From Candidatus Gottesmanbacteria bacterium RIFCSPHIGHO2_01_FULL_40_15 (GTDB lineage Bacteria > Patescibacteriota > Microgenomatia > 2-02-FULL-39-11), in contig MFJF01000015.1 in assembly GCA_001779115.1 (NCBI GenBank), forward strand, positions 86,491 through 150,490: a DNA stretch of 64,000 nt, read 5' to 3'. The position numbers and the translations under genes were made by a program. Shown here one piece after another: positions 16 to 37,662 of the stretch (position 1 is the stretch's first letter; each line of letters starts with the position of its first letter). The notes below the pieces were generated by a model, which saw only the letters and a list, made by a program, of their open reading frames with translations, was not told where the DNA came from and ran no database searches.

Positions 16-1137
16 ATGAAATCAATAAATTATAAAATTTCTGTTCCGCTTGTTGATCTGAAGGCGTCCTATAAGGGGATAAAAAACCAAATTGACAGGG
101 CAATTGCCGGTGTTTTGGGAAAAACTAACTTCATAATGGGAGATGAAGTAACCGGCTTTGAGACTGCTTTTACCCGGTATATCGGTACAAAATACGCTAT
201 CGGAGTTTCATCCGGAACAGCCGCTATTCATCTTATCCTGAAAGCTCTTGGAATTGGAGCAGGAGATGAAGTAATTCTCCCTTCCCATACCTTCACGGCA
301 ACTGCAGAACCGGTAGTTTGGCTGGGAGCCAAACCGGTCTTTGCCGATATTGCGCCGGATTATACCCTTGATCCGACACGTCTGGAAAAACTTATCACCG
401 CCAAAACTAAAGCTGTTATTCCCGTTCATTTATACGGATTACCAGCTGATATGGACGGGATTTCAAAAATAGCATCCCGCTATAAAATTTCAGTCATCGA
501 GGATACCGCCCAAGCCCATGGTGCAGTTTTTGGCAAAAAAAAGACGGGAACTTTGGGGATTGCGGCCGCTTTTTCATTTTATCCGGGTAAGAATCTGGGT
601 GCCTATGGTGATGCCGGTTGTGTAGTCACCGATAACCGTCTCCTGGCTGATGCTGTCAGGAAACTGAGAAACCATGGCAGGACGGAAAAATACCGGCATC
701 AACTGGTTGGCTACGGTGAGCGGTTGGACACACTTCAGGCAGCCGTGCTTTCAGTTAAACTTAAGCATCTGGAACGATGGAACCGCCAAAGAAGGACTGC
801 GGCAGCCCTTTATGACCGGCGGCTTAAAGATATTCCTCAAGTAACAATGCCTGAGACAATATCCGGCCGGCGGCATGTCTATCATTTATATGTTATTCAG
901 GTGGAACAAAGGGACAAACTGAAAAATTATTTAAAAGAAAAGGGGATCGGGTGCGGTATCCATTATCCGATTCCTCTGCATCTCCAACCGGCTTATAAGT
1001 TTTTAAGATACAAGCGGGGTGATTTTCCCGATACCGAAAAAATCTCCGGTAGAATTTTATCTCTGCCGATTTATCCTGAAATAACCACCGCTCAGATAAA
1101 ATATATTACCAAATGCGTAAAAGAATTCTATTCCTGA
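16..1137 (+). CDS. DegT/DnrJ/EryC1/StrS-family PLP-dependent sugar aminotransferase (copy 1)
   Basis: 373 aa with the N-terminal pattern typical of ArnB/PglE-type UDP-4-keto-sugar aminotransferases (VPLVDL..., GDEV..FE..F..Y.G.KYAI.V.SGTAA..L.L.ALGIG.GDEVI.PS.TF.AT...V...GA.PVF.DI) and a Lys-containing AHG region. Confidence 0.8.
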   Translation: MKSINYKISVPLVDLKASYKGIKNQIDRAIAGVLGKTNFIMGDEVTGFETAFTRYIGTKYAIGVSSGTAAIHLILKALGIGAGDEVILPSHTFTATAEPVVWLGAKPVFADIAPDYTLDPTRLEKLITAKTKAVIPVHLYGLPADMDGISKIASRYKISVIEDTAQAHGAVFGKKKTGTLGIAAAFSFYPGKNLGAYGDAGCVVTDNRLLADAVRKLRNHGRTEKYRHQLVGYGERLDTLQAAVLSVKLKHLERWNRQRRTAAALYDRRLKDIPQVTMPETISGRRHVYHLYVIQVEQRDKLKNYLKEKGIGCGIHYPIPLHLQPAYKFLRYKRGDFPDTEKISGRILSLPIYPEITTAQIKYITKCVKEFYS

Positions 1138-2696
1138 TATTCGTAACAGTCTTTCTTAAAGAGCTGGTTTGGATTGCTGTGGTTCCACTTTGGCATTTTC
1201 CGGATGAGCAGGCCCATTTCGGCCAGGCAGCATACATTGCCGAGAAAGGCAGCCAGGTGCCTTATCCTCCGGAAAATGATTTGACGGAAGAAATATTGAT
1301 TTATGAGAAAACTTTAGGGACAAAAAGGGATAAGTTCGGCAATAACAAATTCACTTTTCATCCACAATACCGGATTGACTATTCCGGCCATGAAACCGGT
1401 ATTTTTGAAGAAAGTCTGAAAAATTTATCGTCAAATAAGGAATACCGGCAGATGTCAATTCACGAAGCATCACGCTATCCGCCTCTGTATTATTTTCTTA
1501 TTTCTTTAAATTACCGCCTTTTTTACGGCCGGGATCTCATAATCCGGGTTTTTGTCGCCCGCCTGTTCCAGCTTATATTCTATATGGGTGTTGTTTTATT
1601 AGCCTATCTGACCGCCAAAAATATATTTGAATCGGTGCTGCAGCAGACTACAGCCGTCATGCTGGTCGCCTTTCACCCCATGTTTTCATTTGTCTCGGCC
1701 GGAATAAACAGCGATAATGCCGGTAATTTAATTTTCAGTGTATTTACCTATATTTCAGTAATAACACTTAAAAAGGGCATAAACCTCAAAAGATTGATCG
1801 CCTTAATTCTTACCCTTATCTTATCGGTTAATATAAAACCTCAATTTATTGTCATCCTGCCTTTGATATTTGTGCTTTTAATTATCGCCTTTCTGATAAA
1901 AAAAAGACAAAATTCAATAAATCCGGGCAGGATTCTGTTTACGGCTGTTGTTTTTATAATCTCCATCATGCTTTTGTGGCGGTCCGGCAGGGACTTATTT
2001 TCCATAATATTCCGTTTTTTTTCACATTTTGATGTTAACCTGGTAACCGGGCACATTAAAAACTATGCCCTTCCTCAGCTTTATCATGAGGTTATGCCCT
2101 GGTATTGGGGAATCTTTAACTGGCTGGGGGTAACCTATATCCGCCCGGTTCACCGGTTGGTCAACTGGATCAGCTTGACAGCGATTATAGGTCTGTCTAT
2201 TTATTTTCTTAAAAATGTAAGAAAAAAAATTTATTGGCCAGTGAGCGGATTTTTTTACCTGGTTTTTTGCAATCTTTTATTGTTTTCTGGAATCTACCTT
2301 TATGATTGGCTGGAAACAGTAAGAACTAAATATCATCTTGGAGTCCAGGGCAGATATTTTTTCCCGTTACTGGTTTCTCAAATGATTTTGATCTTCCAGG
2401 GGTTCCGGGCGCTGTTTTCTTTCACCGCTTCCCTGAAAAGCTGCCTGGTGAAATTGTTGGCTGTTCTGATGGTAATCTTTCACTGGTATGCCCTGTTAGT
2501 CGTATCCGCTTCATACTATGACCTGTCATCTATAAGAATGTTTATTGTCCAAGCCAGCCAGTATAAGCCGTGGTTTTTTAAGGGAGGGTTCCTTTTTAGC
2601 CTTATAGCCCTGGCGATGTCCGTCAATCTGGTTTTTCTGCTACAATATTTAAAAGAGCCTGAAAATTATGGTACCGCAAAGAAAGAGAAAAGTTAA
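1113..2696 (+). CDS. Polytopic membrane protein, DUF2142-like (putative GT-C-type glycosyltransferase)
   Basis: 527 aa with about 10 or more predicted TM helices and an N-terminal 'FPDEQAHFGQAAYIAEKG' motif resembling the DE..H motif of DUF2142. Overlaps the upstream gene, indicating operon coupling. Confidence 0.45.
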   Translation: MRKRILFLIFVTVFLKELVWIAVVPLWHFPDEQAHFGQAAYIAEKGSQVPYPPENDLTEEILIYEKTLGTKRDKFGNNKFTFHPQYRIDYSGHETGIFEESLKNLSSNKEYRQMSIHEASRYPPLYYFLISLNYRLFYGRDLIIRVFVARLFQLIFYMGVVLLAYLTAKNIFESVLQQTTAVMLVAFHPMFSFVSAGINSDNAGNLIFSVFTYISVITLKKGINLKRLIALILTLILSVNIKPQFIVILPLIFVLLIIAFLIKKRQNSINPGRILFTAVVFIISIMLLWRSGRDLFSIIFRFFSHFDVNLVTGHIKNYALPQLYHEVMPWYWGIFNWLGVTYIRPVHRLVNWISLTAIIGLSIYFLKNVRKKIYWPVSGFFYLVFCNLLLFSGIYLYDWLETVRTKYHLGVQGRYFFPLLVSQMILIFQGFRALFSFTASLKSCLVKLLAVLMVIFHWYALLVVSASYYDLSSIRMFIVQASQYKPWFFKGGFLFSLIALAMSVNLVFLLQYLKEPENYGTAKKEKS

Positions 2697-4221
2697 CAGA
2701 ACTTCTCTGATCCTGTTTATAATTCTTCTTTTGGCCTTTTTTTTCCGCTTTTATAAACTGACGGAATGGTTCAGTTTCGGTATGGACCAGGAGTATGAAG
2801 CATTTCTGGTAAAAAATATTGTCGAAGGCAATCATATTCCATTAATCGGGGTCAATGCCGGAGATACCGGAATATATCTTGGCCCTTATTTCATTTACCT
2901 ATCAGTCATTCCCTATCTTTTATTTCTGGGGAATCCCCTGGGTTTTGCTGTAACTGCCTCGTTTCTCGGTGTTGTTGTCACGTATTTAATTTTTGTCATC
3001 GTTAAGAAACTTTTTTCACTTCCGGCCGGTCTTTTTGCCGCCTTTTTTTATGCCGCTTCTTTTTTAGCGTCATATTATGACAGAAGCTTCTGGAATCCCA
3101 TGCCCGTGCCTCTTTTGTCTCTTCTGATTGTCTATTTTATTTACAGGATAGTTAGGGGAGACGGCAAATATCTTGTCTTTTTAGCTTTTGTTTTCGGGTT
3201 AATTTTTCATACCCATTTATCGCTTTTGATTTTTACACCCATTCTAATTTATGTTCTTATCGTAAACCGGCAGAAATTCAGCCGCAAAATAATAATTTGG
3301 TCACTTTGCGTATTTCTTTTTATGTTGGCTCCGCTTCTTTTATTTGAACTCCGGCATAACTTTACCAATTCCAGGGCGGTAATTAAAAGCTTCTCCGCTG
3401 AAAACAATTCCCAAACTTCCGGTTTTAATAACCGGGTATACCATCTCATGAATTTTCTGGGGCGTTTCATTTGGATTCCGCCCGCTCCGGACCTGTTTGT
3501 TGAAAAAGGCATGTGTCGGGATCTTTTGTGGTTGAGGAAAAATGCCTATCCGGAAATAATCGGGTTAACCGTTCTCGCGTTGGCGGTATTTTTATATTTA
3601 CATCATCCCGGGAAAAGGTCAGCCGCATATGCATTGGTAATGGCTGTTTTTTCAATGGGGCTTTTGGCCGTACTTTTCTATCGGGGTAATTTTTATGAAT
3701 ATTACTTATTGTTTCTTCTGCCTTTCCTGGCGATTGTCCTGGGTATTGTGGTCAGTATTTTAAACCGGTCGGAAAATTTAAAACCCTTAGCCGTTCTTAT
3801 TGTTTTCGTTTTCCTGGTATTAAACCTGATTACACTTTTTACCGCGCAAAACAGTTACACCCACAATAACAAGATAGCAGTGACCCAATTCACTAAAAAG
3901 TATGTTTCGCAGGATACATTTAATCTGGAAGCTCTTGGTGAATGTCCGCGTTTTGGAGGCTGGCGGTATCTTTTTGAGTATAATGTCGGAACTCCCGTTC
4001 ATTCCTATATGGACAGCTATTTTCAATGGCTCTATCAGAATAAAACACCCTCCGGCCAGCCTGAAAAAGTTGTTCTTTTGTCAATGATTGACGCCCGCTC
4101 AGCACCAAAAACCATTGCCCGCTGGCAGGAAGATAAAGTCAGGTTCCTGACGGGATATAATATACTGGCTGAAAAATTATTGAAAAACATCCATGTCTTT
4201 ATCCTGTCCCCTATAAAGTGA
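2668..4221 (+). CDS. GT-C family membrane glycosyltransferase (GT39/GT83, ArnT/PMT-like)
   Basis: 517 aa with a polytopic N-terminal domain carrying an acidic 'MDQEYEA' loop after TM1, as in ArnT/PMT-type lipid-carrier-dependent glycosyltransferases. A C-terminal soluble domain follows. Confidence 0.5.
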   Translation: MVPQRKRKVNRTSLILFIILLLAFFFRFYKLTEWFSFGMDQEYEAFLVKNIVEGNHIPLIGVNAGDTGIYLGPYFIYLSVIPYLLFLGNPLGFAVTASFLGVVVTYLIFVIVKKLFSLPAGLFAAFFYAASFLASYYDRSFWNPMPVPLLSLLIVYFIYRIVRGDGKYLVFLAFVFGLIFHTHLSLLIFTPILIYVLIVNRQKFSRKIIIWSLCVFLFMLAPLLLFELRHNFTNSRAVIKSFSAENNSQTSGFNNRVYHLMNFLGRFIWIPPAPDLFVEKGMCRDLLWLRKNAYPEIIGLTVLALAVFLYLHHPGKRSAAYALVMAVFSMGLLAVLFYRGNFYEYYLLFLLPFLAIVLGIVVSILNRSENLKPLAVLIVFVFLVLNLITLFTAQNSYTHNNKIAVTQFTKKYVSQDTFNLEALGECPRFGGWRYLFEYNVGTPVHSYMDSYFQWLYQNKTPSGQPEKVVLLSMIDARSAPKTIARWQEDKVRFLTGYNILAEKLLKNIHVFILSPIK

Positions 4222-5342
4222 AGAAAAATAAACGGTTCATACCGATAGCCTTTCCGGAAATAAGCGGCAATGAAAAATCATATCTGCTAAATTGCCTTAA
4301 ATCATCCTGGATTTCCTCAAAGGGTGAGTATATCGACAGATTCGAGGAGGATTTTGCCCGGTTCATCGGGAGTAAATATGCGGTATCCTCATCCAACGGT
4401 ACTACCGCCCTGCATTTGGCGTTGGTTGCTGCCGGTATCGGACCCGGCGACGAAGTTATTTTACCCGATCTGACTTTTGTGGCAACGGCCAATACCGTTA
4501 AATATACCGGAGCCGAACCGGTTTTAGTTGATGTTAACAAAAAAAGCTGGCAAATTAATACCCGTCTAATTGAAGGAAAAATAAATAAAAAGACCAAAGT
4601 GTTGCTGCCCGTTCATCTATACGGAATTCCTTCCGATATGAAAAAAATCATGGAAATTGCAAAAAAATACAAATTGACGGTTATTGAAGATGCAGCTGAA
4701 GCTCACGGTGCAAAAGTTATGATGGGAGATGTATCTTTTAAAATGGCCGGTTCGATAGGTTTAATGGGCTGCTTCAGTTTTTACGCTAACAAAATCATAA
4801 CTACCGGTGAAGGGGGTATGGTAGTAACTGATGACCGGAAAAAAGCGGACCTTATGAAAATGCTCCGTGACCACGGGCAGGATCCAGGCAGGCATTATTA
4901 TCATCCTTTAATCGGATTTAATTATAGGATGACTAATCTCCAGGCCGCCTTGGGAACAGCCCAACTTGAAAGAATTCAAAAATTACTTAATTTTAAATCC
5001 CGGATTGCCGCTCTTTACACCAATATGCTTTCAAAAGTTGCCGGTATTTATTTTCCGGAAATTCCGGCCGGAACAGAAGCCGTCTGCTGGCTTTACTCGG
5101 TTATTGTAGACAAGCCGTATCCTTTAAGCCGGGATGTCTTAATTAAGAAATTAAAAAACAGAGGTATTGAAACCCGGCCTTTTTTCTACCCCATGCACCG
5201 CCTGCCCGCCTATATTTCAGAAGAAAGTTTCCCCGCTGCCGATTATTTGTTCCATCACGGCATAAACCTCCCCAGCGGTTACAACCTAACGGAGGGTGAT
5301 ATCAAATATATTTGTGCTGTTATTAAATCATTTTCGAAATGA
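4218..5342 (+). CDS. DegT/DnrJ/EryC1/StrS-family sugar aminotransferase (copy 2)
   Basis: 374 aa with the same fold signature as copy 1 (GDEVILPDLTFVATANTV.Y.GA.PV.VDV; LLPVHLYG; IEDAAEAHGA). ATGA overlap with the upstream gene. Confidence 0.8.
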   Translation: MKKNKRFIPIAFPEISGNEKSYLLNCLKSSWISSKGEYIDRFEEDFARFIGSKYAVSSSNGTTALHLALVAAGIGPGDEVILPDLTFVATANTVKYTGAEPVLVDVNKKSWQINTRLIEGKINKKTKVLLPVHLYGIPSDMKKIMEIAKKYKLTVIEDAAEAHGAKVMMGDVSFKMAGSIGLMGCFSFYANKIITTGEGGMVVTDDRKKADLMKMLRDHGQDPGRHYYHPLIGFNYRMTNLQAALGTAQLERIQKLLNFKSRIAALYTNMLSKVAGIYFPEIPAGTEAVCWLYSVIVDKPYPLSRDVLIKKLKNRGIETRPFFYPMHRLPAYISEESFPAADYLFHHGINLPSGYNLTEGDIKYICAVIKSFSK

Positions 5343-6646
5343 AGGCTAAAATTAGATTATTGGGTAATTTGCTTGTTTCGGAAACTGCCAGAAATACTTA
5401 CGCCGTTTTTATCGGTAATGCTGTTTCAGCCGTATTGGCTTTTATTTTTACCGTGACTTTGGTCCGCCGGCTGACTCTGTCGGATTTTGGTTATTTTTCC
5501 GCCCTGCTTTCCTTCATGCTGCTTTTAACGGAACTTTCTGATATCGGTATCGGTCAGTCGCTTTCTTCTTTTCTGCCGAGACTGGAAAAAACTGTATCTG
5601 CTCTTCACAGCTTTCTTAAAGCGTCATTTGTTATCCAGTTGGCAATTTCATCCGTTGTGTCTTTTACCATTATCATTTTTTCATTAACCGTCTCACGGCT
5701 TTTGTTTCATACCGATAAGTTTGCCGGCCTGGTTATTTTGACCGCAATCGGTATTTATGCCACAGTCCTTTCCAATTTTGTCAATAATTCTTTATCCGCC
5801 AGGAAAAAATTTTTAAAAGTCGCCTTTCTTACAGTTTTTGGCGCTTTTTTAAGACTGGCACTTCTGATTGTAATAATACTTTTTTCCGTTGTTACCCTGA
5901 ATAATTCCGTTTTGGTCCAAAGTCTGTCTCTGGTGATCCTGATGCTGGCTGCGCTTTCCGTTCACAAATTTTCTTTTCTTAAATCTCCTCTGATAAAAGG
6001 CGATATCAGGAACCTGATCTTTTTTGCCGGATTTTTGGGATTAGCCCGGAGTTTTACGGCAATTGCTTTCCGTCTGGATGTTCTCATGCTGGTAGCTTTA
6101 AAAGACGCCACCGAAGCCGGCATTTATTCAACCGCTTCCAGGGTTATTTCAATATATCCTTTACTGGCGGGCAGTTTCATGATGGTAATTGCTCCCAAAA
6201 TAGCCGTCTTGAAGGGAAATAGGGAACTTATTGATTTTTCCAAAAGGGTACTTTTTGCCACAATCCTATTGGTTGCTTCAAGTATTTTTATGATCATTAT
6301 TGCCCGGCCGTTTATGCTGACGCTTTTTGGTGATAAAGTAATTCCGGCGGTTACCGTTTTTCGCCTTTTGCTTATTGCCATGATTTTTTTTGTCGCATCA
6401 ATACCGCCCGTTTCCATTGCCGTTTATTATTTGCGTAAACCATATATCCTGACCGTTAATTCCGTCCTCCAGTTAATAATAGTTGTTATCGGCAATCTTA
6501 TTTTAATTCCGGTTCTTGGCCGCCACGGTCCGGCCGTATCTCTTATTATTGCCTATGGCATATCTCTTTTATTAACAACGGTAATGACCGTTTATCACTT
6601 CCGACTGAACAATCCGGTCAGGCTTAAACCCTTATTAAAAAAATAA
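5339..6646 (+). CDS. Wzx-like oligosaccharide flippase (MOP/polysaccharide biosynthesis protein family)
   Basis: 435 aa with about 12 TM helices and the typical Wzx N-terminal arrangement (KN..VF.GN.VS..L.F.FT....R.L....FG.FS...S...L...L.D.G). Confidence 0.6.
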   Translation: MKAKIRLLGNLLVSETARNTYAVFIGNAVSAVLAFIFTVTLVRRLTLSDFGYFSALLSFMLLLTELSDIGIGQSLSSFLPRLEKTVSALHSFLKASFVIQLAISSVVSFTIIIFSLTVSRLLFHTDKFAGLVILTAIGIYATVLSNFVNNSLSARKKFLKVAFLTVFGAFLRLALLIVIILFSVVTLNNSVLVQSLSLVILMLAALSVHKFSFLKSPLIKGDIRNLIFFAGFLGLARSFTAIAFRLDVLMLVALKDATEAGIYSTASRVISIYPLLAGSFMMVIAPKIAVLKGNRELIDFSKRVLFATILLVASSIFMIIIARPFMLTLFGDKVIPAVTVFRLLLIAMIFFVASIPPVSIAVYYLRKPYILTVNSVLQLIIVVIGNLILIPVLGRHGPAVSLIIAYGISLLLTTVMTVYHFRLNNPVRLKPLLKK

Positions 6647-6651
6647 TTTTC

Positions 6652-8262: not shown

Positions 8263-8313
8263 ATCCGGATTATTTTACCATTAATTAAAGTTTAGTTTTA
8301 CAGAGTTTCAGGC

Positions 8314-8319
8314 TATAAT
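8314..8319 (+). promoter_or_regulatory. Perfect TATAAT -10 element 6 nt upstream of the Wzx(2) start codon (possible leaderless/short-leader promoter)
   Basis: 'caggcTATAATcgagccATG' in the 63-bp divergent intergenic region between the 6652-8262 (-) and 8326-9606 (+) genes. No SD sequence is visible. Confidence 0.3.
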
Positions 8320-8325
8320 CGAGCC

Positions 8326-9606: not shown

Positions 9607-9611
9607 ATCCG

Positions 9612-10436: not shown

Positions 10437-10448
10437 GATCTTGTCACC

Positions 10449-13794: not shown

Positions 13795-13806
13795 ACAAAA
13801 AAGCAA

Positions 13807-15216: not shown

Positions 15217-15269
15217 ACGCTTTTTGCCAAGTATTATAAGCCGAGTGTAAAATACGCGTTAAACAAATA

Positions 15270-15929: not shown

Positions 15930-15930
15930 T

Positions 15931-22469: not shown

Positions 22470-22476
22470 CATTCCT

Positions 22477-26455: not shown

Positions 26456-26459
26456 CTTT

Positions 26460-29669: not shown

Positions 29670-29695
29670 TGTTAAAATAAAAGTCTTAAACGCAT

Positions 29696-29908
29696 ATGAA
29701 ATTTATAAAACTGATGTTATTTCTTATCAGCATAAGTTTGATTTTTCCTTCAAAATCACACGCTTATATTGATCCCGGTACTGGCAGTTATCTTTTTCAG
29801 ATAATTGCAGCATCCCTTATTACCGTGCTTCTATCCGCCAGAACATTTCTGAAATTTGTCCGCAATATCCTTGGTCGGATAACTTCTTTCAAAAAAAGCA
29901 AGAAATGA
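29696..29908 (+). CDS. Small (70 aa) two-helix membrane protein, translationally coupled to the downstream kinase-methyltransferase
   Basis: Hydrophobic N-terminal helix, a central 'YIDPGTGSYLFQIIAASLITVLL' segment and a basic C-terminus. Its stop overlaps the next start (ATGA). Confidence 0.3.
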   Translation: MKFIKLMLFLISISLIFPSKSHAYIDPGTGSYLFQIIAASLITVLLSARTFLKFVRNILGRITSFKKSKK

Positions 29909-31317: not shown

Positions 31318-32854
31318 CATTCCTTACCTGCATACTATTCTATTCAGCATCTACCCGGTAGTTACTCTTTATTCCCAGAATCTGTACCAGGTGCTGATAA
31401 AAGATGCGTTTTTCCCCGCCATTGTGATGTTGATCTCCGCTTTTTTACTGATTTTTGTTCTTCGTTTACTCTCCGGTAATACCCGTCTGATTACGCTTGC
31501 TGTTTCTTTATTTTATCTATTAATGTTTTCATACGGCACCGTATCCAAATATATGGCGCGAACAGGGGGAATTAATGAATTAACTGGTCAATGGTTGTCG
31601 GTTTTTATAATTATCCTGTTATATTTTATCTCTCTGAAACTGTTAAAAGTTAACAAGATACATCTTTTAGGATTTACCTCCTTTGTTAACAAAATTTCTC
31701 TGCTGATAATTATCATTCCCATTGTTCCCATCGTTTTTAATTTCTATTCAGGAATGCAGTTTCGGAAAAAAGCACTGAGTGATATTTCCAAAACCCAAAA
31801 AGTTGATATCGGAAATATTGGGAATTTGCCTGATATTTATTATCTAATATTTGACCGATATGCTTCACAAAGCACATTGTCCGGATACTTCGGTTTCGAT
31901 AATTCTTCATTCTCCGATTATCTTGAGAATAAAGGTTTCTATTTGGCACAAAACAGCTGGGCAAATTATTACTCTTCAGCCCATTCATTGACCTCCTCCC
32001 TTAATATGGATTATTTGGATAATATAATAAATTCAGCGCCTGCCGGACCTGATGATAGGGACTGGACTTTGCTTTATAACCGCCTGGAAGAAAACGCTGT
32101 CGCTAAATCCCTGAAAAGCATTGGCTACAAGTATTATCATTTCGGTTCCTGGTGGTGGCCTACAGGCAAAAACCGTCTTGCTGACGAAAATATAAATTTG
32201 GGATATTTATCGGAATTTTCAGCCCGTTTGGTTGACAGCAGTATTTTATTCCCTTTAGCCAAAAAGTATAATTTTCCGCTGTTAGACAGCCGATACAATC
32301 AATGGCGCAGGATTAACTACCAATTCGACAGATTGGAACGGATTCAAAGTGAAAACTCGCCGGTCTTTGTTTTTGCCCATTTCATTATTCCCCATGAACC
32401 GTTTGTTTTTGAATCTGACGGTAAATTTTTAACTGCACAAAAAGAATCTCAAAAAGATATTAATGAAAAATATCTGGATCAGCTGGTATTTCTTAACGGA
32501 AAAATAAAATCATTTGTCGATATCGTTGTAAACAGTAGAGGCGGTAACTCCGTCATTATCCTTCAGTCGGATGAAGGTCCCTATCCGGTGCAATATGAGA
32601 GCAATAAGGATAGCTTTGACTGGACAACGGTTGATTACCCTTTGGTGTCTCAAAAAATGGCAATTCTTAATGCCATTTATTTTCCTGACGGTAATTATGA
32701 AATCCTAAAAAACGGACTGTCACCCGTTAACACGTTCAGAATTATTTTTAACCGCTTTTTGGGCCAGAATCTGCCTCTTCTGCCGGACCGTTATTATTTA
32801 GGTAACATGTCACAGCCGTATAATCTGATTGAATATAAAAAACCTCCCCAATAA
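31310..32854 (+). CDS. LtaS/sulfatase-family membrane phosphotransferase, paralog B
   Basis: 514 aa with the same architecture as the 10449 gene. It has five TM helices plus a sulfatase-fold domain with 'PDIYYLIFDRYA' and 'FAHFIIPHEPFVFE'. Confidence 0.6.
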   Translation: MFNIPYLHTILFSIYPVVTLYSQNLYQVLIKDAFFPAIVMLISAFLLIFVLRLLSGNTRLITLAVSLFYLLMFSYGTVSKYMARTGGINELTGQWLSVFIIILLYFISLKLLKVNKIHLLGFTSFVNKISLLIIIIPIVPIVFNFYSGMQFRKKALSDISKTQKVDIGNIGNLPDIYYLIFDRYASQSTLSGYFGFDNSSFSDYLENKGFYLAQNSWANYYSSAHSLTSSLNMDYLDNIINSAPAGPDDRDWTLLYNRLEENAVAKSLKSIGYKYYHFGSWWWPTGKNRLADENINLGYLSEFSARLVDSSILFPLAKKYNFPLLDSRYNQWRRINYQFDRLERIQSENSPVFVFAHFIIPHEPFVFESDGKFLTAQKESQKDINEKYLDQLVFLNGKIKSFVDIVVNSRGGNSVIILQSDEGPYPVQYESNKDSFDWTTVDYPLVSQKMAILNAIYFPDGNYEILKNGLSPVNTFRIIFNRFLGQNLPLLPDRYYLGNMSQPYNLIEYKKPPQ

Positions 32855-32863
32855 AAAATAACG

Positions 32864-33979
32864 ATGAAATTAGCCATAGTCTATGACCGGGTAGTTAAAT
32901 TCGGCGGCGCGGAAAGAATTTTAATGGCTCTGCATGAAATTTGGCCAAATGCTCCGCTTTATACGGCCGTCTACCGGCCGGAAAAAGCCCCCTGGGCCCG
33001 GCGTTTCCATATCAGAAGTTCTTTTTTGGATCATATTCCCTATGCCGAAAACATAATAGAGGTTCTCCCTTTTTTTACGCCCTACGCTTTTGAAAATTTC
33101 AATTTTGACGAATATGATATTGTTATCAGCATCACTTCCCAGGATGCCAAAAGTATTATCACCAAGCCGCAAACATTTCATGTCTGTTATTGCCTTACTC
33201 CAACCCGCTATTTGTGGAGCGGGTTAAATGAGTATTATAACCAGCCGGCTGCCGGTATTTTTAATCCCGGTGTACGTCTGGGTATGAAACTGTTTGTCAA
33301 CAAACTTCGCCGGTGGGATAAAATTTCCTCAAAAAGACCTGATAGTTATTTGAGTATATCCAAAACGGTAAAAAGAAGGATAGCTGCCTATTACAATAGG
33401 GAGTCTAAAGTTATATATCCGCCTGTAGATACGGAAGTTTTTAATCTGCCTAAAGTTAAAACTCTGAATGATTATTTTCTCATTGTCAGCAGGCTGGTGC
33501 CTTATAAAAGAGTAGATTACGCCATTGAGGCATTCAGCCAATTACCTTACCGGTTAAAGATTATCGGCTCCGGAATTGATGAGAAAAGGCTGAAAAAAAA
33601 CGCCGGAAAAAATATTGAATTTATCGGCAGTGATTTGACAGACCGGAAATTAGGCTGGTATTATCAGAATTGCCTGGCGCTGATATTTCCCGGTGAAGAA
33701 GACTTCGGCTTGACGGCAGTTGAAGCACAAGCTTGCGGACGTCCGGTAATTGCCTTGGGGAAGTCAGGTACAACGGAAACGGTAATAAACGGAAAAACAG
33801 GCTTATTTTATGATGAAAAGTCTGCAGACAGTTTGATAAGCGCGGTCAGGAAATTTTTCAAATACAGCTTTAATCCGGAAAACTGCAGGCAAAACTCACT
33901 TCGTTATTCGAAAAAACAGTTCAAACAGTTGATGAAATCTGAGATTGAAAATATTCGGCAAAACCTAAAATCAGTATGA
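32864..33979 (+). CDS. Glycosyltransferase family 4
   Basis: 'MKLAIVYDR' N-terminus and 'EEDFGLTAVEAQACGRPVIALG'. Confidence 0.7.
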   Translation: MKLAIVYDRVVKFGGAERILMALHEIWPNAPLYTAVYRPEKAPWARRFHIRSSFLDHIPYAENIIEVLPFFTPYAFENFNFDEYDIVISITSQDAKSIITKPQTFHVCYCLTPTRYLWSGLNEYYNQPAAGIFNPGVRLGMKLFVNKLRRWDKISSKRPDSYLSISKTVKRRIAAYYNRESKVIYPPVDTEVFNLPKVKTLNDYFLIVSRLVPYKRVDYAIEAFSQLPYRLKIIGSGIDEKRLKKNAGKNIEFIGSDLTDRKLGWYYQNCLALIFPGEEDFGLTAVEAQACGRPVIALGKSGTTETVINGKTGLFYDEKSADSLISAVRKFFKYSFNPENCRQNSLRYSKKQFKQLMKSEIENIRQNLKSV

Positions 33980-35058
33980 AAGCAATCATATTTGCCGGAG
34001 GCGTGGGAAAACGCCTTTGGCCGCTATCCCGAAAAAGTTCACCGAAACAGTTTGAAAAGATTATCGGGGATAAATCAACTCTGCAGCTTTCAATTGAAAG
34101 CATTTTGCCGGTTATTTCCTGGCAGGATATAAATATTTCAACCAATACCAAATATATCGGTCAGGTAAAGGAACAACTGCCGGTTTTGCCCGAAGAAAAT
34201 ATAATAGGAGAACCGGAAACAAGGGATGTCGGCCCTGCTGTTGCCCTGGCGACCGCTATTTTGCATAAAAAAACCCCGAAAACCCCCCTGGTAATACTCT
34301 GGAGCGATCATATTATCAAAAAAACCGGTCTGTTTCTTGATATTCTAAACTTTTGCCGTGAATATATTGAAAAAAATGATAAAAAAATTATCTTTATCAG
34401 CCAGAAAGCCAGATTTGCCAGTCAAAACCTGGGCTGGATAAAGTACGGTAATGTTAAATTTATCAAAAAAAATATTTCCTTTCATGAGTTTGCCGGTTTC
34501 CGTTACCGTCCTTCCCTGAAGGAAGCTGAAGATTTTCTCCGGGCAGGTAATTATGCCTGGAATACCGGATATTTTGTCACAACCCCTTCCTTTATCTGGT
34601 CTCTGTTTAAAAGCCACCAGCCTGAAATGTTTAAAAGCATGGAAAGAATTTCCAAAGCTTATTTAACCCCGCAATTTGAAAAAGTGCTGGATATTGAATA
34701 CCGGTTGCTGCCAAAAATTTCCTTCGATAACGCCATATTGGAAAAAATTAATATGGATAACGCTTTCGTTGTCGCGTCGGATTTGGGTTGGAGCGATATT
34801 GGAGCCTGGGAAGCTTTAAAGGAAGCCCTCCAGACGGAATCCGAGCAGAATGTAGTGAAAGGAAAAGTAGTCGTTACCGACTGTGAAGATTCGCTGATTT
34901 ATAATTATACCGACCAGCTCCTGGTGGCAATAGACGTGGATGGTTATCTTGTCGTCAATACCAAGGATGTTGTTCTGGTTTGTCATAAAAATTCCGTCCC
35001 CAAAATAAAAAAACTGGTGGAAAAACTATCCAAATCAGAAAATGATCATTTAGTTTAA
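33976..35058 (+). CDS. manC: Mannose-1-phosphate guanylyltransferase (GDP-mannose pyrophosphorylase)
   Basis: N-terminal 'IIFAGGVGKRLWPLSRKSSPKQF' matches the ManC/GMPP signature GGxGxRLWPLSR..PKQF. Confidence 0.75.
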   Translation: MKAIIFAGGVGKRLWPLSRKSSPKQFEKIIGDKSTLQLSIESILPVISWQDINISTNTKYIGQVKEQLPVLPEENIIGEPETRDVGPAVALATAILHKKTPKTPLVILWSDHIIKKTGLFLDILNFCREYIEKNDKKIIFISQKARFASQNLGWIKYGNVKFIKKNISFHEFAGFRYRPSLKEAEDFLRAGNYAWNTGYFVTTPSFIWSLFKSHQPEMFKSMERISKAYLTPQFEKVLDIEYRLLPKISFDNAILEKINMDNAFVVASDLGWSDIGAWEALKEALQTESEQNVVKGKVVVTDCEDSLIYNYTDQLLVAIDVDGYLVVNTKDVVLVCHKNSVPKIKKLVEKLSKSENDHLV

Positions 35059-35080
35059 TCCGTTATTTAACTCTTGTTAT

Positions 35081-35740
35081 ATGGTTGATGTTTCCGGAGA
35101 TTTATACGACAGATACTTAAAAAGGTTAACTGATTTTTTCCTTTCAACTGTGCTTATTATTTTATTTCTTCCGGTATCGGTTGTTTTGGCAATTTTGATT
35201 AAATTCGATAATCCCGGTCCAATATTCGCCGATACGCCGGAAAGGGTAGGCCAGAACGGCAGGCTTTTTAAAATGTTCAAGTTCCGTTCAATGATAGTCA
35301 ATGCCCATATGATTCTAAGACAGGATCCCAAATTCCGCGGTTTATATGCCAAATACAAAAGGAACAGTTATAAATTAAAGGATGATCCGCGGGTAACGAA
35401 ATTGGGAAAATTCATGCGCAAACATTCGCTGGATGAAATCCCCCAGCTGTTTAATGTGCTGATAGGCGACATGAGTCTCATCGGTCCGCGGGCTTATTAT
35501 CCGGATGAGTTGGATAATCAGCAGAAAAAATATCCCAAGACTCGTATTCTGGTAAAAAAAGTCCTGTCAATAAAGCCGGGTATTACCGGTCATTGGCAGG
35601 TATCAGGTAGAAGCGAAGTCAACTTTGACAAAAGAATCGCCATGGATGCCGATTATGTTCAAAAGCGGTCCTTGTGGTATGATGTTAGGATTCTTTTGGT
35701 TACCCCTTGGGCCATGATTACCGGCAAGGGTGCTGTCTGA
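35081..35740 (+). CDS. Small initiating phosphoglycosyltransferase (bacterial sugar transferase, PglC/WbaP C-terminal-domain type)
   Basis: 219 aa with a single re-entrant N-terminal helix and the 'PGPIFADTPERVGQNGRLFKMFKFRSM' and 'DEIPQLFNVLIGDMSLIGPR' motifs of PF02397 polyprenyl-phosphate hexose-1-phosphate transferases. Confidence 0.8.
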   Translation: MVDVSGDLYDRYLKRLTDFFLSTVLIILFLPVSVVLAILIKFDNPGPIFADTPERVGQNGRLFKMFKFRSMIVNAHMILRQDPKFRGLYAKYKRNSYKLKDDPRVTKLGKFMRKHSLDEIPQLFNVLIGDMSLIGPRAYYPDELDNQQKKYPKTRILVKKVLSIKPGITGHWQVSGRSEVNFDKRIAMDADYVQKRSLWYDVRILLVTPWAMITGKGAV

Positions 35741-35742
35741 AA

Positions 35743-37662
35743 ATGAACCGGAATTTCAGAAAAATCAAGTTTAATGAAAACGGGGCAGTTTCCGTAAAAA
35801 ATGTCAAAATCCCGCTATTTTTAAGTAAAAAGGGTAAACTCCTGTTGGCATTTTTTATCGCGCTGTTATTTATCTTTTTCCTGGCTGTATTTTTCCCGGC
35901 ACGCCAAATTGCATCAGACGTCCAAAAAGTCAGGGCTTCAGGAAGCCGGGTTTATGAACACGCCAAAAACCAGGATCTGGATAAAGTGTCAACAGAACTT
36001 GAAGTATTCAGGAGTGATCTTATTGCTTTGCAGTCTTCGGTAAATAAACTTAATTTTTTAGGAATTTTACCAGGTGTGGGTAGATATCAACAAGACAGCC
36101 GTCATCTTGCTGCCGGAGCCGTGTATGCTTCCGAGGCGCTTAAAGAAACCGTTCAGACTCTCATGCCGTATTCTGATTTATTGGGGCTAAAAGGCCAGTC
36201 AACTTTTGTATCCGGATCAGCCGATGACAGGATCAGGACAGCTGTTGAAACGATAGAAAAGATTGTACCCAATATAGACAAAATAGGCCGTTTGATTTCA
36301 CTTGCCGAAAAAGAAATATCATCTGTCGATTTCAACCGGTATCCCCAAAGAGTTGCCGGAAAAAACGTCCGAAGCAGTTTAATATCAGGAAAAAAACTTT
36401 TCTCGGAAACTGCCGTGCTTTTCACTAAAGCACAACCGTTTCTTAAAAACCTTCCCGATATTTTGGGAAATAAGGAGAGTAAAAAATATCTTTTTCTTTT
36501 CCAGAATGATGCCGAACTTAGGGCAACCGGAGGATTTTTAACCGCCTATGCAATTTTTAATGTTGACAAGGGAAAACTTACAGTTGAAAGGTCGGATGAT
36601 ATCTACAAGCTGGATGAGGCAAAAAAGAAGCAATTTCCGGCACCCGAAAAAATTCTGACATATCATAAAGGCGTCACCAATTTCCACCTCAGAGATTCAA
36701 ACCTGTCGCCTGATTTTTCCGTTTCAATGGCAACTTTTGAAAAATTATTGAAAGACTCAAGCGTTGATTTGGGAACATATGACGGAATAATAGCCCTTGA
36801 TACCCATGTTCTCGTATCAACAATTGAAATTCTGGGTGATTTTAATATCAATGGCCGCACTTTTTCAGCCGAAACCGATAAACGATGTAACTGTCCTAAA
36901 GTCATCTATGAATTGGAAGATTATGCCACCAGGCCGGTAGCTTACGTCAGGGAGGACAGAAAGGGAATAATCGGATCACTTCTTTATGAAATAATGCATA
37001 AAGCCCTCGGTGTTTCCCCATCTCAATACTGGGGAAAACTTTTTCAGATGTTTATAGATGAAGCCAATCAAAAACATATTCTATTTCTGTTTAAAAATGA
37101 AGATGCCCAAAAAGGTATTGAAGCTCTCAACTTCGCCGGGAAGATAATGGCGTATGATGGTGATTATCTCCACATTAACAATGTCAATTTTGCCGGTGCC
37201 AAATCCAATCTTTATGTTAAAAATTATGTCACTCAGGAGATTCAAAACAAAGAAAATAAAATCGAAAAAACCCTGACCTTGACTTATAAAAATCCGGCTC
37301 CGGCCTCAAATTGTAATCTGGAAGCCGGTCAGCTTTGTTTAAACGGAATATTGAGGAACTGGCTAAGAGTGTATGTTCCCCGGGGAAGCAAGCTCTTGGA
37401 ATTTAAAGGTTCTGAAATGGATGTTAAAACATATGATGAATTGGATAAAACCGTTTTCGAGGGGTTCCTGACGGTTAAACCGCAGGGATCGGCAGAAGCC
37501 AAAATCGTCTACCGGCTTCCTGAAAACTTTCCCGCAGATACGCCTTATAAAATACTTATCCAAAAACAACCCGGTACCGGTGAAGAGGAATTTACAATAA
37601 AGGGGCAGGGGAGAGAGGAAAAGCTCATCCTTAACACCGACCGGGAAATAATCTTCAACTGA
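35743..37662 (+). CDS. DUF4012-like membrane-anchored extracytoplasmic protein
   Basis: A start chosen immediately after the upstream stop gives an N-terminal TM helix. The conserved 'FQNDAELRATGGFLTAYAIFNVDKGK' segment resembles DUF4012, a family found next to cell-wall glycopolymer genes. Confidence 0.5.
   Translation: MNRNFRKIKFNENGAVSVKNVKIPLFLSKKGKLLLAFFIALLFIFFLAVFFPARQIASDVQKVRASGSRVYEHAKNQDLDKVSTELEVFRSDLIALQSSVNKLNFLGILPGVGRYQQDSRHLAAGAVYASEALKETVQTLMPYSDLLGLKGQSTFVSGSADDRIRTAVETIEKIVPNIDKIGRLISLAEKEISSVDFNRYPQRVAGKNVRSSLISGKKLFSETAVLFTKAQPFLKNLPDILGNKESKKYLFLFQNDAELRATGGFLTAYAIFNVDKGKLTVERSDDIYKLDEAKKKQFPAPEKILTYHKGVTNFHLRDSNLSPDFSVSMATFEKLLKDSSVDLGTYDGIIALDTHVLVSTIEILGDFNINGRTFSAETDKRCNCPKVIYELEDYATRPVAYVREDRKGIIGSLLYEIMHKALGVSPSQYWGKLFQMFIDEANQKHILFLFKNEDAQKGIEALNFAGKIMAYDGDYLHINNVNFAGAKSNLYVKNYVTQEIQNKENKIEKTLTLTYKNPAPASNCNLEAGQLCLNGILRNWLRVYVPRGSKLLEFKGSEMDVKTYDELDKTVFEGFLTVKPQGSAEAKIVYRLPENFPADTPYKILIQKQPGTGEEEFTIKGQGREEKLILNTDREIIFN

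Follow-up and report, generated by a model that had tools for sequence, protein, structure and literature searches.

A lineage-conserved core beside cell-division genes and swappable accessory cassettes make up a large glycan region of Candidatus Gottesmanbacteria

Related glycan loci

Wall polysaccharide loci of Gram-positive bacteria, including epa in Enterococcus faecalis, cwps in Lactococcus lactis, and the streptococcal GAC/SCC rhamnopolysaccharide loci, consist of a core and a variable part. These loci are among the closest known systems to a glycan region of Candidatus Gottesmanbacteria (CPR/Patescibacteria), an uncultured groundwater lineage represented by Rifle aquifer MAGs, the right-hand half of which lies at positions 16–37662 of the window analyzed here (the whole stretch of 64,000 nucleotides; Table 1). 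In both, large co-directional clusters combine cytoplasmic GT2 and GT4 enzymes acting on undecaprenyl carriers with extracytoplasmic decoration by a small GT2 (GacI/GtrB-like), a GT-C enzyme (GacL-like), and an LtaS-like glycerol-phosphate transferase (GacH-like), and a conserved segment is accompanied by strain-variable cassettes. Attachment of the polymer to peptidoglycan by a phosphotransferase is a further likeness, which we infer for the Gottesmanbacteria locus. The latter differs in having no rhamnose (RmlABCD) core, ABC transporter, or WecA/GacO-type initiator and in initiating by a Bac_transf phosphoglycosyl transferase (PGT), while a Wzy_C/GT-C fusion and a DUF4012 protein replace the known polymerase and LCP components, and the region, with its 17 polytopic proteins, reaches two to three times their size.

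The Wzx/Wzy O-antigen and capsule loci (Salmonella WbaP-WbaZ) share a WbaP-like PGT (E 3e-44), a WbaZ-like mannosyltransferase, ManC, Wzx flippases, a Wzy_C-family domain, and a WcaF-like acetyltransferase. This classical set of PGT, Wzx, Wzy_C domain, GT2/GT4, acetyltransferase, and ManC could suggest a secreted capsule or exopolysaccharide or an LPS-type O-antigen locus, as could the presence of DUF4012 in the EPS/CPS locus of Bifidobacterium longum 105-A, where it directly adjoins the priming PGT (PMC5412050). Such a product is nevertheless very unlikely: Wzz/PCP, Wza/Wzc, lipid A, and outer-membrane genes were not found in the 64-kb window and 39 kb upstream, a WaaL acceptor (lipid A-core) is likewise missing, and the host is probably monoderm, as CPR bacteria are considered to be (PMC6744442). 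In addition, the Wzy_C domain is fused to GT-C and highly conserved instead of serotype-variable, and the strict conservation and fixed place by the dcw cluster are unlike strain-variable loci. The B. longum cluster itself varies between strains and continues with a chain-length determinant, Wzz (PMC5412050), whereas the PGT-DUF4012 pair is fixed beside RecO-GlyRS-dcw throughout the Gottesmanbacteria lineage.

The actinobacterial polyprenyl-phosphate-mannose systems (ManC - Ppm1 - GT-C mannosyltransferases of LM/LAM synthesis, and O-mannosylation of proteins by Pmt) resemble the locus in ManC, small soluble Ppm1-like GT2s, many PMT/PMT_2/GT-C paralogues, and the GT-C fold common to g22 and AftA, AftB, Emb, and Pmt. 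They differ in that phosphatidylinositol-anchor genes (PimA/PimB context) were not identified in the Gottesmanbacteria locus, and in that the genes are clustered here but dispersed in mycobacteria.

Extent, architecture, and conservation

The whole glycan region spans ~76.6 kb (~77 kb) with ~65 genes, among which 17 encode polytopic GT-C-like proteins and at least eight copies belong to PMT/PMT_2. The left boundary originally predicted at position 16 merely reflects where the window begins, as glycan genes continue upstream for a further 38.9 kb to contig position 108100, ending in an Aminotran_1_2 gene. The right boundary at 37662 was placed correctly, and RecO-GlyRS and the dcw/peptidoglycan cluster follow directly on the chromosome. 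The same 149–187 kb contig was recovered independently in many samples and by two assemblers; the contig carrying the locus is therefore not a chimera of several contigs.

Positions 16–37662 form the dense, nearly gapless array that had been described (~99.8% coding, longest ORFs), with 32 ORFs in place of the 33 genes claimed, namely 31 long ORFs and a 70-aa ORF occupying the sole large gap. The supposedly uniform plus strand is interrupted by one minus-strand gene (g6), and the 4-bp ATGA overlaps ascribed to most junctions reduce to 4-bp overlaps at only 7 of 30 (ATGA, n = 5; GTGA, n = 1; TTGA, n = 1), with overlaps of any size at 18. The original prediction read the array as one ~37-kb operon-like assembly line, with all genes co-transcribed for one glycoconjugate, and the close packing, near-uniform gene orientation, even GC (0.38–0.44), and intergenic terminators not exceeding shuffle expectation are in its favor. 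However, g6, with a 63-bp divergent gap, splits the array, so that the array cannot be a single transcript; the region runs 38.9 kb past the window; the relatives keep only g16-g25 and g28-g31, the rest being replaced or missing; and the presence of two paralogous Wzx, two LtaS-like, and 17 polytopic proteins points to more than one branch or product. A single unit of this kind is thus unsupported, and the reading is improbable.

Synteny was compared in the relatives L134, L135, and L136 for the core and also in L138 and L139 for the right-end junction. Genes g16-g25 and g28-g31 are syntenic in three other Gottesmanbacteria genomes at 33–74% protein identity and form a core spanning roughly 17.4–37.7 kb minus an insertion at 29696–32854; neighborhood conservation thus holds for the core, whereas the rest is variable, and the array is not one co-inherited unit. 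The ManC gene g29 is missing from L135, and g16, itself without a Pfam match, has orthologues carrying PMT_2 in L134 and L135 (33–43% identity); the same-position gene in L136 carries PMT_2 as well. The core probably also includes g6, g11, and g12, with L134 orthologues of g6 (33% identical, also on the minus strand) and g12 (39% identical). The right end, PGT-DUF4012-RecO(-GlyRS-MraZ-RsmH-FtsI), is kept even in relatives in which DUF4012 is only 28% identical.

Variable cassettes occupy the window from 16 to ~17 kb, including the Wzx genes, which lie outside the strict core, as well as the insertion and the 38.9 kb upstream, and show mosaicism (MT-AsnB-GT4 and GT2-DUF2304-GT2-epimerase). The insertion is lineage-specific, g26-g27 being absent in relatives and the 70-aa ORF absent at that position in L134, L135, and L136. 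A different insertion occupies the same junction in L136, and the site is a recurrent hot spot. Within the insertion, g26 is possibly a methyltransferase, judging from a PDB 1f38 match (E 0.08) and the UniRef name 'SAM-dependent methyltransferase', with no Pfam match.

Table 1. Features of the glycan array and its right-hand boundary (window positions)
Gene	Position	Strand	Part	Product	Evidence
g1	16–1137	+	variable	DegT/PseC/ArnB-like sugar aminotransferase	Pfam DegT_DnrJ_EryC1 E 2e-121
g2	1113–2696	+	variable	polytopic DUF2142 membrane protein, GT-C-like	Pfam DUF2142 E 3e-19; ~10 TM; UniRef 'RgtA/B/C/D-like'
g3	2668–4221	+	variable	PMT_2 (GT39/ArnT-like) GT-C glycosyltransferase	Pfam PMT_2 E 3e-9, above cut-off; ~12 TM
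g4	4218–5342	+	variable	DegT aminotransferase, LegC-family-like	Pfam DegT E 7e-115
g5	5339–6646	+	variable	Wzx-type flippase (Polysacc_synt)	Pfam E 1e-21
g6	6652–8262	-	probably core	polytopic DUF6798 protein	Pfam DUF6798 E 8e-20
g7	8326–9606	+	variable	Wzx-type flippase	Pfam Polysacc_synt, Polysacc_synt_3
g8	9612–10436	+	variable	small GT2, C-terminal TM	Pfam Glycos_transf_2; gene callers: start 9639, 265 aa
g9	10449–11999	+	variable	LtaS-like, 5 N-terminal TM, sulfatase-fold ectodomain	Pfam Sulfatase E 3e-14; TM scan
g10	11996–13075	+	variable	GT4 glycosyltransferase	Pfam Glycos_transf_1 E 2e-22
g11	13072–13794	+	probably core	240-aa soluble GT2	Pfam GT2 E 3e-31
g12	13807–15216	+	probably core	polytopic DUF2079 protein	Pfam DUF2079 E 1e-49
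g13	15270–15929	+	variable	SAM methyltransferase	Pfam Methyltransf_11
g14	15931–16746	+	variable	small GT2	Pfam Glycos_transf_2
g15	16743–17447	+	variable	SAM methyltransferase	Pfam Methyltransf_11 E 2e-15
g16	17429–18820	+	core	polytopic GT-C-like, first strictly syntenic gene	~8 TM; UniRef 'RgtA/B/C/D-like'
g17	18795–19568	+	core	SAM methyltransferase, C-terminal TM	Pfam; L134 orthologue 46% identical
g18	19565–20704	+	core	GT4	Pfam; orthologues 41–44% identity
g19	20717–21862	+	core	GT4	Pfam E 7e-39; orthologues 43–47% identity
g20	21852–22469	+	core	WcaF-like hexapeptide O-acetyltransferase	Pfam Hexapep; orthologues 59–62% identity
g21	22477–23388	+	core	GT2, C-terminal TM	Pfam; L134 orthologue 46% identical
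g22	23363–26455	+	core	1030-aa Wzy_C/WaaL-like + PMT_2 GT-C fusion, core hallmark	Pfam
g23	26394–27656	+	core	GT4	Pfam; orthologues 48–61% identity
g24	27593–28585	+	core	GT2, C-terminal TM	Pfam E 2e-30; orthologues 45–48% identity
g25	28569–29669	+	core	GT4	Pfam; orthologues 45–49% identity
70-aa ORF	29696–29908	+	insertion	hydrophobic, first insertion gene	translation; ATGA overlap with g26
g26	29905–31317	+	insertion	470-aa soluble protein	NCBIfam methyltransferase weak, E 8e-5
g27	31310–32854	+	insertion	second LtaS-like protein	4–5 N-terminal TM; paralogue of g9
g28	32864–33979	+	core	GT4	Pfam; orthologues 51–55% identity
g29	33976–35058	+	core	ManC, mannose-1-phosphate guanylyltransferase	Pfam NTP_transferase, ManC_GMP_beta-helix; L134 orthologue 61%
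g30	35081–35740	+	core	small monotopic phosphoglycosyl transferase (Bac_transf), WbaP-like	Pfam E 4e-60; orthologues 42–74%
g31	35743–37662	+	core	DUF4012, N-terminal TM, large ectodomain, last locus gene	
RecO, GlyRS	37684–39613	+	right boundary (conserved)	housekeeping	Pfam; same junction in L134, L135, L138, L139

Gene families and the g22 fusion protein

Families were assigned by Pfam and NCBIfam profile searches, a TM scan, UniRef names, BLASTP/phmmer, and PDB sequence comparison, and the earlier family calls were almost all correct. Pfam/NCBIfam support two DegT aminotransferases (g1, g4), five GT2 (g8, g11, g14, g21, g24), six GT4 (g10, g18, g19, g23, g25, g28), two Wzx flippases (g5 and g7, paralogues; phmmer 5e-64), and three stand-alone methyltransferases (g13, g15, g17), and the acetyltransferase g20, ManC, the PGT g30, and DUF4012 were likewise supported. 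Both LtaS-like proteins were recovered, g9 by its Sulfatase match (with no PDB relative found by sequence) and g27, which has no Pfam match, by 37% identity to g9 over 510 aa (BLASTP, E 2e-106). At least six GT-C-type polytopic proteins (g2, g3, g6, g12, g16, and g22) were found where at least five had been claimed, and the count of glycan genes, called unusually high, was if anything too low. The proposed Ppm1-like synthase g11 is a GT2 by Pfam and a candidate polyprenyl-phosphate-hexose synthase (Ppm1/AglJ/GtrB-like), its top NCBIfam matches (AglJ and dolichyl-P-hexose transferase) all falling below cut-off. Nearly all specific NCBIfam matches in the locus fall below curated cut-offs, including PseC and ArnB for g1, the LegC family for g4 (368 bits; cut-off, 420), WcaF for g20, and GMP_PMI for g29 (229 bits), and the sugar identities are therefore guesses. 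The closest solved relative of g28 is a WbaZ-type 'first mannosyltransferase' (PDB 2f9f, E 2e-20), and g30 is nearer to WbaP (PDB, E 3e-44) than to PglC (E 8e-27).

In g22, an N-terminal Wzy_C/WaaL-like domain (Wzy_C, 57 bits) is followed by a C-terminal PMT_2 GT-C domain (39 bits), both above the Pfam cut-off, and more than 120 clusters of full-length homologues share 50–69% identity. No PDB relative was detectable by sequence. The AF2 model (pLDDT 77) predicts a GT-C fold, matching ArnT (TM 0.60), ALG12 (0.64), STT3 (E 1e-7), PglB, AftA, AftB, Emb, and Pmt4 in Foldseek, and WaaL 7tpg at TM 0.61 with a weak E of 0.037.

The Wzy_C family covers O-oligosaccharyltransferases as well as ligases. 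General protein O-glycosylation is accordingly a possible but rather unlikely alternative, in which the Wzy_C domain of g22 would act as a PglL/PilO/WsaB-type O-oligosaccharyltransferase. It would move the Und-PP-linked oligosaccharide built by the core genes as one block onto Ser/Thr residues of proteins at the cell surface (S-layer, pilins, sortase substrates), while direct O-mannosylation of proteins would be the task of the numerous PMT_2 members. The Wzy_C match above cut-off, at least eight copies of the protein-O-mannosyltransferase family PMT/PMT_2 in the region, and a conservation of g22 far above that of usual O-antigen polymerases, as expected with a fixed protein acceptor, are consistent with this, as are the Gram-positive-like envelopes, pili, and sortases described for CPR cells (PMC6744442). 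However, PMT_2 also takes in ArnT-like lipid and glycan glycosyltransferases, the ligase, polymerase, and O-oligosaccharyltransferase activities of g22 are indistinguishable from sequence, and a wall polymer is a better match for the LtaS-like transferases and for DUF4012 as a possible LCP-like protein.

A proposed pathway for a composite region

The core most likely builds one undecaprenyl-pyrophosphate-linked heteroglycan, which the cassettes would decorate; we infer the substrates, step order, acceptor, and DUF4012 role as follows. The WbaP-like g30 would load the lipid carrier, which would then be extended in the cytoplasm by the WbaZ-like g28, the GT4s g18, g19, g23, and g25, and the GT2s g21 and g24, from donors including GDP-mannose supplied through ManC. 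The unit may be O-acetylated by g20 and methylated by g17 before being flipped by a Wzx protein. Outside the membrane, the WaaL/Wzy-like domain of g22 would polymerise or ligate the glycan, and its GT-C domain would add a lipid-phosphate-linked sugar. The cassettes may provide uncommon sugars of the amino, deoxy, and amidated kinds (DegT, SDR epimerases/dehydratases, GFO/IDH/MocA, AsnB-like, and ATP-grasp proteins). They may also contribute small GT2 enzymes that make polyprenyl-phosphate sugars and are paired with many GT-C enzymes to decorate the glycan outside the cytoplasm, as well as LtaS-like transferases of phospho-substituents.

The last, extracytoplasmic step would fall to DUF4012, possibly an LCP-like transferase attaching the polymer to peptidoglycan or protein. 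The longest g31 ORF starts at TTG 35707 and the deposited protein at ATG 35743. DUF4012 resembles LCP proteins (Cps2A, TagT/U/V, LcpA) in topology, with an N-terminal TM and an ectodomain, and in adjoining a priming transferase, as in cpsA-cpsE and the Bifidobacterium EPS locus (PMC5412050), and it is enriched in CPR and Gram-positives (PMC6744442). It differs from them in its length of ~640 aa, with an extra bundle of helices and with beta-sandwiches at the C-terminus; no Pfam LCP match occurred among 37 members, hhalign gave a probability of ≤1% with a reversed control scoring equally well, and Foldseek did not recover LCP.

Because Wzz/PCP and canonical LCP were not found in the sequence examined, the pathway lies outside the textbook Wzx/Wzy scheme. 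The general reading first proposed, a multi-stage surface glycan or glycoconjugate with cytoplasmic GT-A/GT-B and extracytoplasmic lipid-carrier-dependent GT-C steps and not a simple O-antigen, agrees with the family content and the GT-C fold of g22. The region is real but composite, joining a lineage-conserved core by the cell-division genes to swappable accessory cassettes, and is of a known type, yet uncommonly large and rich in membrane glycosyltransferases.

Extent and gene content of the glycan region

The window holds a very dense gene array with an even GC content (0.38-0.44, from the ORF listing and composition), in which GenBank labels almost every gene "hypothetical protein". The original prediction described a ~37-kb co-directional locus of 33 genes for a glycoconjugate with ATGA overlaps at most junctions, an observation that holds in part. 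The array comprises 31 long ORFs (g1 to g31, numbered from left to right), which together with one small hydrophobic ORF give a total of 32, and 31 of the 32 lie on the plus strand. With longest-ORF starts, overlapping junctions number 18 of 30; the ATGA claim is wrong, since a 4-bp overlap occurs at only seven of the 30 (five ATGA, one GTGA, and one TTGA). Promoter and terminator scans gave counts equal to the shuffle expectation, and Rfam and tRNA scans of the window returned no match.

Exact sequence matches assign the window to Candidatus Gottesmanbacteria bacterium RIFCSPHIGHO2_02_FULL_40_24 and to sibling MAGs from the Rifle aquifer, whereas a scan of JGI metagenomes returned identical fragments of just 1-3 kb and the GTDB representatives yielded relatives at no more than 51% identity. 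An assembly chimera can be rejected because the gene order is identical on independently built contigs of 149-187 kb from many samples and by two methods (MEGAHIT and the original scaffolding). These contigs differ from the window by 1-15 SNPs within the first 11 kb, mainly in g2 and g3; in one independently assembled copy (L001), 9 of 12 SNPs fall inside these two genes, which represent 28% of the compared length. Since the first gene begins 16 bases into the window, the metagenome contig ena:ERZ27254754:k141_223335 was walked upstream, where the glycan genes extend for a further 38.9 kb (33 genes), so that the whole region spans ~76.6 kb and ~65 genes, 17 of them encoding polytopic non-Wzx membrane proteins. 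The leftmost gene observed encodes a class I/II aminotransferase and may be the left boundary of the region. On the right, the array is followed by RecO and GlyRS and then by a LytR_C protein, MraZ, RsmH, FtsI, and Mur ligases, with MurB, MurA, GlmU, GlmS, FemAB, MraY, and FtsW beyond them.

Nearly all of the originally predicted protein families were borne out by Pfam and NCBIfam searches. The array encodes two DegT aminotransferases (g1, PseC/ArnB-like, and g4, LegC-like, both under equivalog cut-offs), five GT2 and six GT4 enzymes, three stand-alone methyltransferases, a WcaF-like acetyltransferase, ManC, a small Bac_transf phosphoglycosyl transferase (PGT), a DUF4012 protein, and, in its variable part, two paralogous Wzx (MOP-family) flippases (g5 and g7; phmmer 5e-64) with Polysacc_synt matches above cut-off. 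By family, g30 is the initiating polyprenyl-phosphate PGT (Pfam Bac_transf, E 4e-60; PDB WbaP, E 3e-44), and g28 is a WbaZ-like GT4 (PDB 2f9f, E 2e-20). The polytopic GT-C-type set consists of g2 (DUF2142), g3 (PMT_2), g6 (DUF6798), g12 (DUF2079), g22 (Wzy_C and PMT_2), and g16, which has no Pfam match itself and bears the UniRef name RgtA/B/C/D-like, and whose orthologues carry PMT_2. Two LtaS-like proteins are present: g9 has five TM helices and a Pfam Sulfatase domain at residues 179-438, and g27, without a Pfam match, is 37% identical to it over its full length (510 residues), so that both show the N-terminal TM bundle and sulfatase-fold domain of LtaS/EptA-type transferases of the alkaline phosphatase superfamily. 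The aligned motifs NYTTSALSL in g9 and NYYSSAHSL in g27 resemble the Thr/Ser nucleophile motif of LtaS/EptA-type enzymes; a PDB sequence search with g9 gave no meaningful match. At best, g26 (470 aa) is a weak methyltransferase candidate (only a weak PDB match, to a precorrin methyltransferase, E 0.08). Sugar identities derived from NCBIfam were discarded as evidence, almost all specific matches lying under the curated cut-offs.

Among the products of the upstream 38.9 kb are five PMT/PMT_2 proteins that are close paralogues of one another (phmmer 1e-54 to 1e-113), a further PMT_2 protein of 763 aa, a PIG-V/RgtA-like GT-C, a YfhO-like protein, and three additional polytopic proteins without a Pfam match, together with three GT4s and five small GT2s, one of them adjoining a DUF2304 mini-membrane protein. 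In addition, there are five SDR epimerase/dehydratase/reductase genes, an RfbH-like DegT, a GFO/IDH/MocA oxidoreductase similar to UDP-GlcNAc 3-dehydrogenase, an ATP-grasp enzyme, an AsnB-type amidotransferase, two methyltransferases, a HAD phosphatase, and an FAD oxidoreductase. The five upstream small GT2s and g8, g11, and g14 are candidate synthases of polyprenyl-phosphate-sugar donors, and at the level of family GT2 synthases are encoded together with GT-C transferases (for example, g11 with g12; upstream GT2_239 with the YfhO-like protein; GT2_259 with a GT4 and GT-C 379). No GtrA-family Pfam match to a small flippase was obtained, the only small membrane candidates being the 70-aa ORF of the array and, among the upstream genes, the DUF2304 protein of 118 aa.

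Positions of the features discussed (window coordinates unless a locus or contig is named)
Feature	Position	Strand	Description
Array	16-37662		g1 to g31 and one small ORF
g2 and g3	1113-4221		GT-C genes in which SNPs against six independently assembled copies cluster
g6	6652-8262	minus	536-aa polytopic DUF6798 protein; 63-bp divergent gap to the next plus-strand gene
Small ORF	29696-29908		70 aa, hydrophobic; occupies an apparent 235-bp gap
Insertion	29696-32854		bordered by just short repeat matches, at chance level
g25-g28 junction	29670-32863; L136:16252-18602		insertion hot spot, here and in a relative; empty in two others
PMT/PMT_2 run	L133:682-11596		29-39 kb upstream of the window; tandem run of the five GT-C genes, interspersed with two polytopic proteins (273 and 656 aa) without Pfam match
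Excluded contig	L016:1-2213		JGI Ga0209619_10066900, short metagenome contig, chimeric in appearance, left out of the analysis; left part CcdA/TatD-like, running in frame into the C-terminal end of the upstream GT4; right end GC-rich, unrelated, breaking the AsnB-like gene
(GT4)-PGT-DUF4012-RecO-GlyRS order	L134:18578-23132; L135:17317-23102		loci of relatives with g22 orthologues
Same order	L138:789-4029; L139:447-10236		loci with distant DUF4012 homologues
Envelope protein, 533 aa	in 40092-43446	plus	TM helix and only a C-terminal LytR_C domain; between GlyRS and MraZ, outside the locus as defined
Envelope protein, 579 aa	in 40092-43446	minus	~8 TM helices, with TPR repeats at the C-terminus; likewise between GlyRS and MraZ
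Mur-ligase-domain protein	57517-59133		Mur_ligase_M/C at residues 198-528 and about six predicted N-terminal TM helices; predicted unusual membrane-anchored Mur ligase within the peptidoglycan cluster
DegT/FemAB pair	59140-61387		third DegT-family protein (418 aa, domain in two stretches) adjoining a FemAB-family peptidyl transferase inside the Mur/MraY/FtsW cluster; hints at a peptidoglycan modified with an aminosugar or an unusual cross-bridge

A conserved core and exchangeable cassettes

Comparison of the neighborhoods of three g22 orthologues, together with a tblastn search of two of these loci (L134 and L135) with every protein, divides the region into a conserved core and variable surroundings. 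The syntenic core runs from g16 to g25 consecutively and continues with g28, (g29), g30, g31, RecO, GlyRS, and MraZ, at protein identities of 33-74%. Both the sequence to the left of ~17 kb and the upstream 39 kb differ from genome to genome; one relative has g6 (on the minus strand), g12, and a g11-like GT2 directly upstream of the core, and L135 has one Wzx-type flippase upstream of its core. The small ORF, g26, and g27 are missing in all three relatives. At the g25-g28 junction, the cargo consists here of the 70-aa ORF, g26, and the LtaS-like gene, and in L136, also from Gottesmanbacteria, of HAD, EamA, DUF192, and DUF5661 genes.

The right end of the core is conserved over a larger distance. 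Two distant DUF4012 homologues (28% identity) keep the order GT4-PGT-DUF4012-RecO-GlyRS-MraZ-RsmH-FtsI, and as this order persists at such low identity, the PGT-DUF4012 pair is an ancient fixture beside the dcw cluster. Cassettes from the variable part recur elsewhere, for example, a methyltransferase-AsnB-GT4 cassette at ~51% identity in other Patescibacteria and a GT2-DUF2304-GT2-epimerase cassette in a further locus (L137). The former, with its AsnB-like amidotransferase, is also found at ~51% identity in MAGs labeled Gammaproteobacteria and Bacteroidota (L083-L086; L008-L012), as a result of either horizontal transfer or mis-binned contigs. Diversification of the surface glycan, as seen under phage or host-recognition pressure, is suggested by the variable cassettes and by the clustering of SNPs in g2 and g3.

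The fusion protein g22 and the DUF4012 protein g31

The core protein g22 has ~20 TM helices and joins a Wzy_C domain to a GT-C domain, a Wzy_C/PMT_2 fusion for which, as for this locus, we found no description in the literature searched. More than 120 full-length homologue clusters (50-69% identity) are almost all labeled Gottesmanbacteria, Microgenomates, or Patescibacteria. The C-terminal half matches Pfam PMT_2 above cut-off, and in Foldseek searches with the AlphaFold model (pLDDT 77, pTM 0.62) it has a GT-C fold (ArnT 5f15, E 2e-7, TM 0.60; ALG12, TM 0.64), with further matches to STT3, PglB, AglB, DPY19, AftA, and Pmt4; the first helix of this half is followed by an invariant A570-D571-W-H-S-W-R-Q-x-D579-T580 (37 homologues), which may supply the acidic residue or residues conserved in the first extracytoplasmic loop of GT-C enzymes. 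The N-terminal half matches Pfam Wzy_C above threshold (57.1 bits, cut-off 31.7; HMM positions 3-149 of 149), and its structural match to the WaaL ligase 7tpg_B is weaker (E 0.037, TM of 0.61 on the target), the modeled periplasmic loops having a pLDDT < 50. Its invariant residues are R239, R289, R299, R384, and the block E421-S-T-D-N-D-x-L-R-x-L-G-E-T-G435, and the His of the WaaL/PglL HN..L motif may be an Asp in g22. Searches of PDB sequences with the g22 profile and with a sub-alignment limited to Wzy_C gave no meaningful match. By sequence, the Wzy_C domain of g22 is the sole candidate for a Wzy polymerase, in a family that also includes ligases and O-oligosaccharyltransferases. The main rival to the pathway inferred below is a less probable, general protein O-glycosylation system in which g22 would be the O-oligosaccharyltransferase; sequence does not tell the two apart.

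The homologues of g31 show the same pattern of conservation and taxa as those of g22. The model of g31 (pLDDT 84, pTM 0.80) is of good quality and shows a helical bundle and an alpha/beta domain between an N-terminal TM helix and beta-sandwiches at the C-terminus; R260, R317, R381, R406, D256, D286, D318, and D353 are invariant. Foldseek against the PDB returned only weak beta-sandwich matches and recovered no LCP fold. Similarly, PF03816 (LCP) was not detected in DUF4012 at E<=10 (37 members), and the g31 profile had no meaningful match among PDB sequences. When a 99-sequence DUF4012 alignment was compared by hhalign with four genuine LCP fragments taken out of PDB alignments, the probability was 0.3-1%, and 2 of 100 shuffles reached the real score. 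A visually attractive alignment of the motifs DGIIaiDT...lGp..V and IDyyVtVdF..f..vid.lGGi.V was discarded and is not counted as evidence, since the reversed control (18.9) is as good as the real alignment (18.3). No canonical LCP gene was present within 2.03 Mb of loci, which bears little on the whole genome. Because Foldseek, Pfam, and hhalign gave no LCP signal, an LCP-like function of DUF4012 is kept as a lead only, finely balanced and leaning slightly toward doubtful. DUF4012 is a family of >8,000 clusters at 50% identity. The literature notes it only as a CPR-enriched family that Gram-positives also have (PMC6744442) and as the neighbor of the priming transferase gene in a Bifidobacterium EPS cluster (PMC5412050).

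A probable pathway and its place among envelope systems

From families, folds, and gene order, we infer the following substrates and order of steps as the model with the best support. The WbaP-like PGT g30 would prime undecaprenyl phosphate, and the WbaZ-like GT4 g28 and other GT4 and GT2 enzymes would then lengthen the chain, with GDP-mannose supplied via ManC. Acetyl and methyl groups would be put on and the unit flipped by Wzx, after which g22 would handle it on the outer side of the membrane, and DUF4012 (g31) would act last, on a putative acceptor. The accessory cassettes may provide modified sugars, and the GtrB/Ppm1-like GT2 and GT-C pairs and the LtaS-like transferases may serve extracytoplasmic decoration.

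In organization and logic, the locus is like the Gram-positive wall-polysaccharide loci (epa, cwps, and GAC) and the Wzx/Wzy pathways, and the kind of system is familiar; unlike them, it has the conserved Wzy_C/GT-C fusion and DUF4012. No Wzz/PCP match was found in the 50 window proteins (g1-g50) or in the precomputed Pfam assignments for the 33 genes upstream, and no Lpx, Waa, or Lpt family across the 64-kb window and the 39 kb upstream, a stretch in which neither the lipid A-core acceptor nor the outer-membrane context of an LPS O-antigen is found. With no Wzz, canonical LCP, rhamnan or ABC module, or lipid A context, and the fusion and DUF4012 instead, the locus belongs to none of these systems. 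The interpretation in the original prediction, a multi-stage surface glycan, glycolipid, or protein-glycosylation system rather than a simple O-antigen, is supported in part.

A further reading, which we consider unlikely, concerns the core from the GT-C g16 through g22 to the PGT g30 and DUF4012 g31, in Gottesmanbacteria and more distant relatives. Fixed beside RecO-GlyRS-dcw, this core would be a lineage-defining, probably essential wall glycopolymer pathway, in which a WaaL-like/GT-C fusion takes over the separate Wzy and Wzz functions and DUF4012 is a hitherto unrecognized, highly divergent LCP-type transferase anchoring the polymer; if true, DUF4012 would be assigned a function.

CPR/Patescibacteria live fixed onto other cells, and to our knowledge the composition of their cell envelope is essentially unknown. 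Glycan synthesis here takes up ~77 kb, which would be roughly 5-7% of a genome as large as that of a relative (largest contig, 1.12 Mb). A small lineage-conserved core of ~14 genes, physically tied to the division/peptidoglycan cluster, is set apart from exchangeable cassettes, and the Wzy_C/GT-C fusion and DUF4012 are marked as the likely machinery of extracytoplasmic assembly and attachment. The region is noteworthy for CPR envelope biology in its size, its GT-C load, and its conserved core next to the dcw cluster, and a testable function would follow for a large family of domains of unknown function should DUF4012 prove to have the LCP-like fold.
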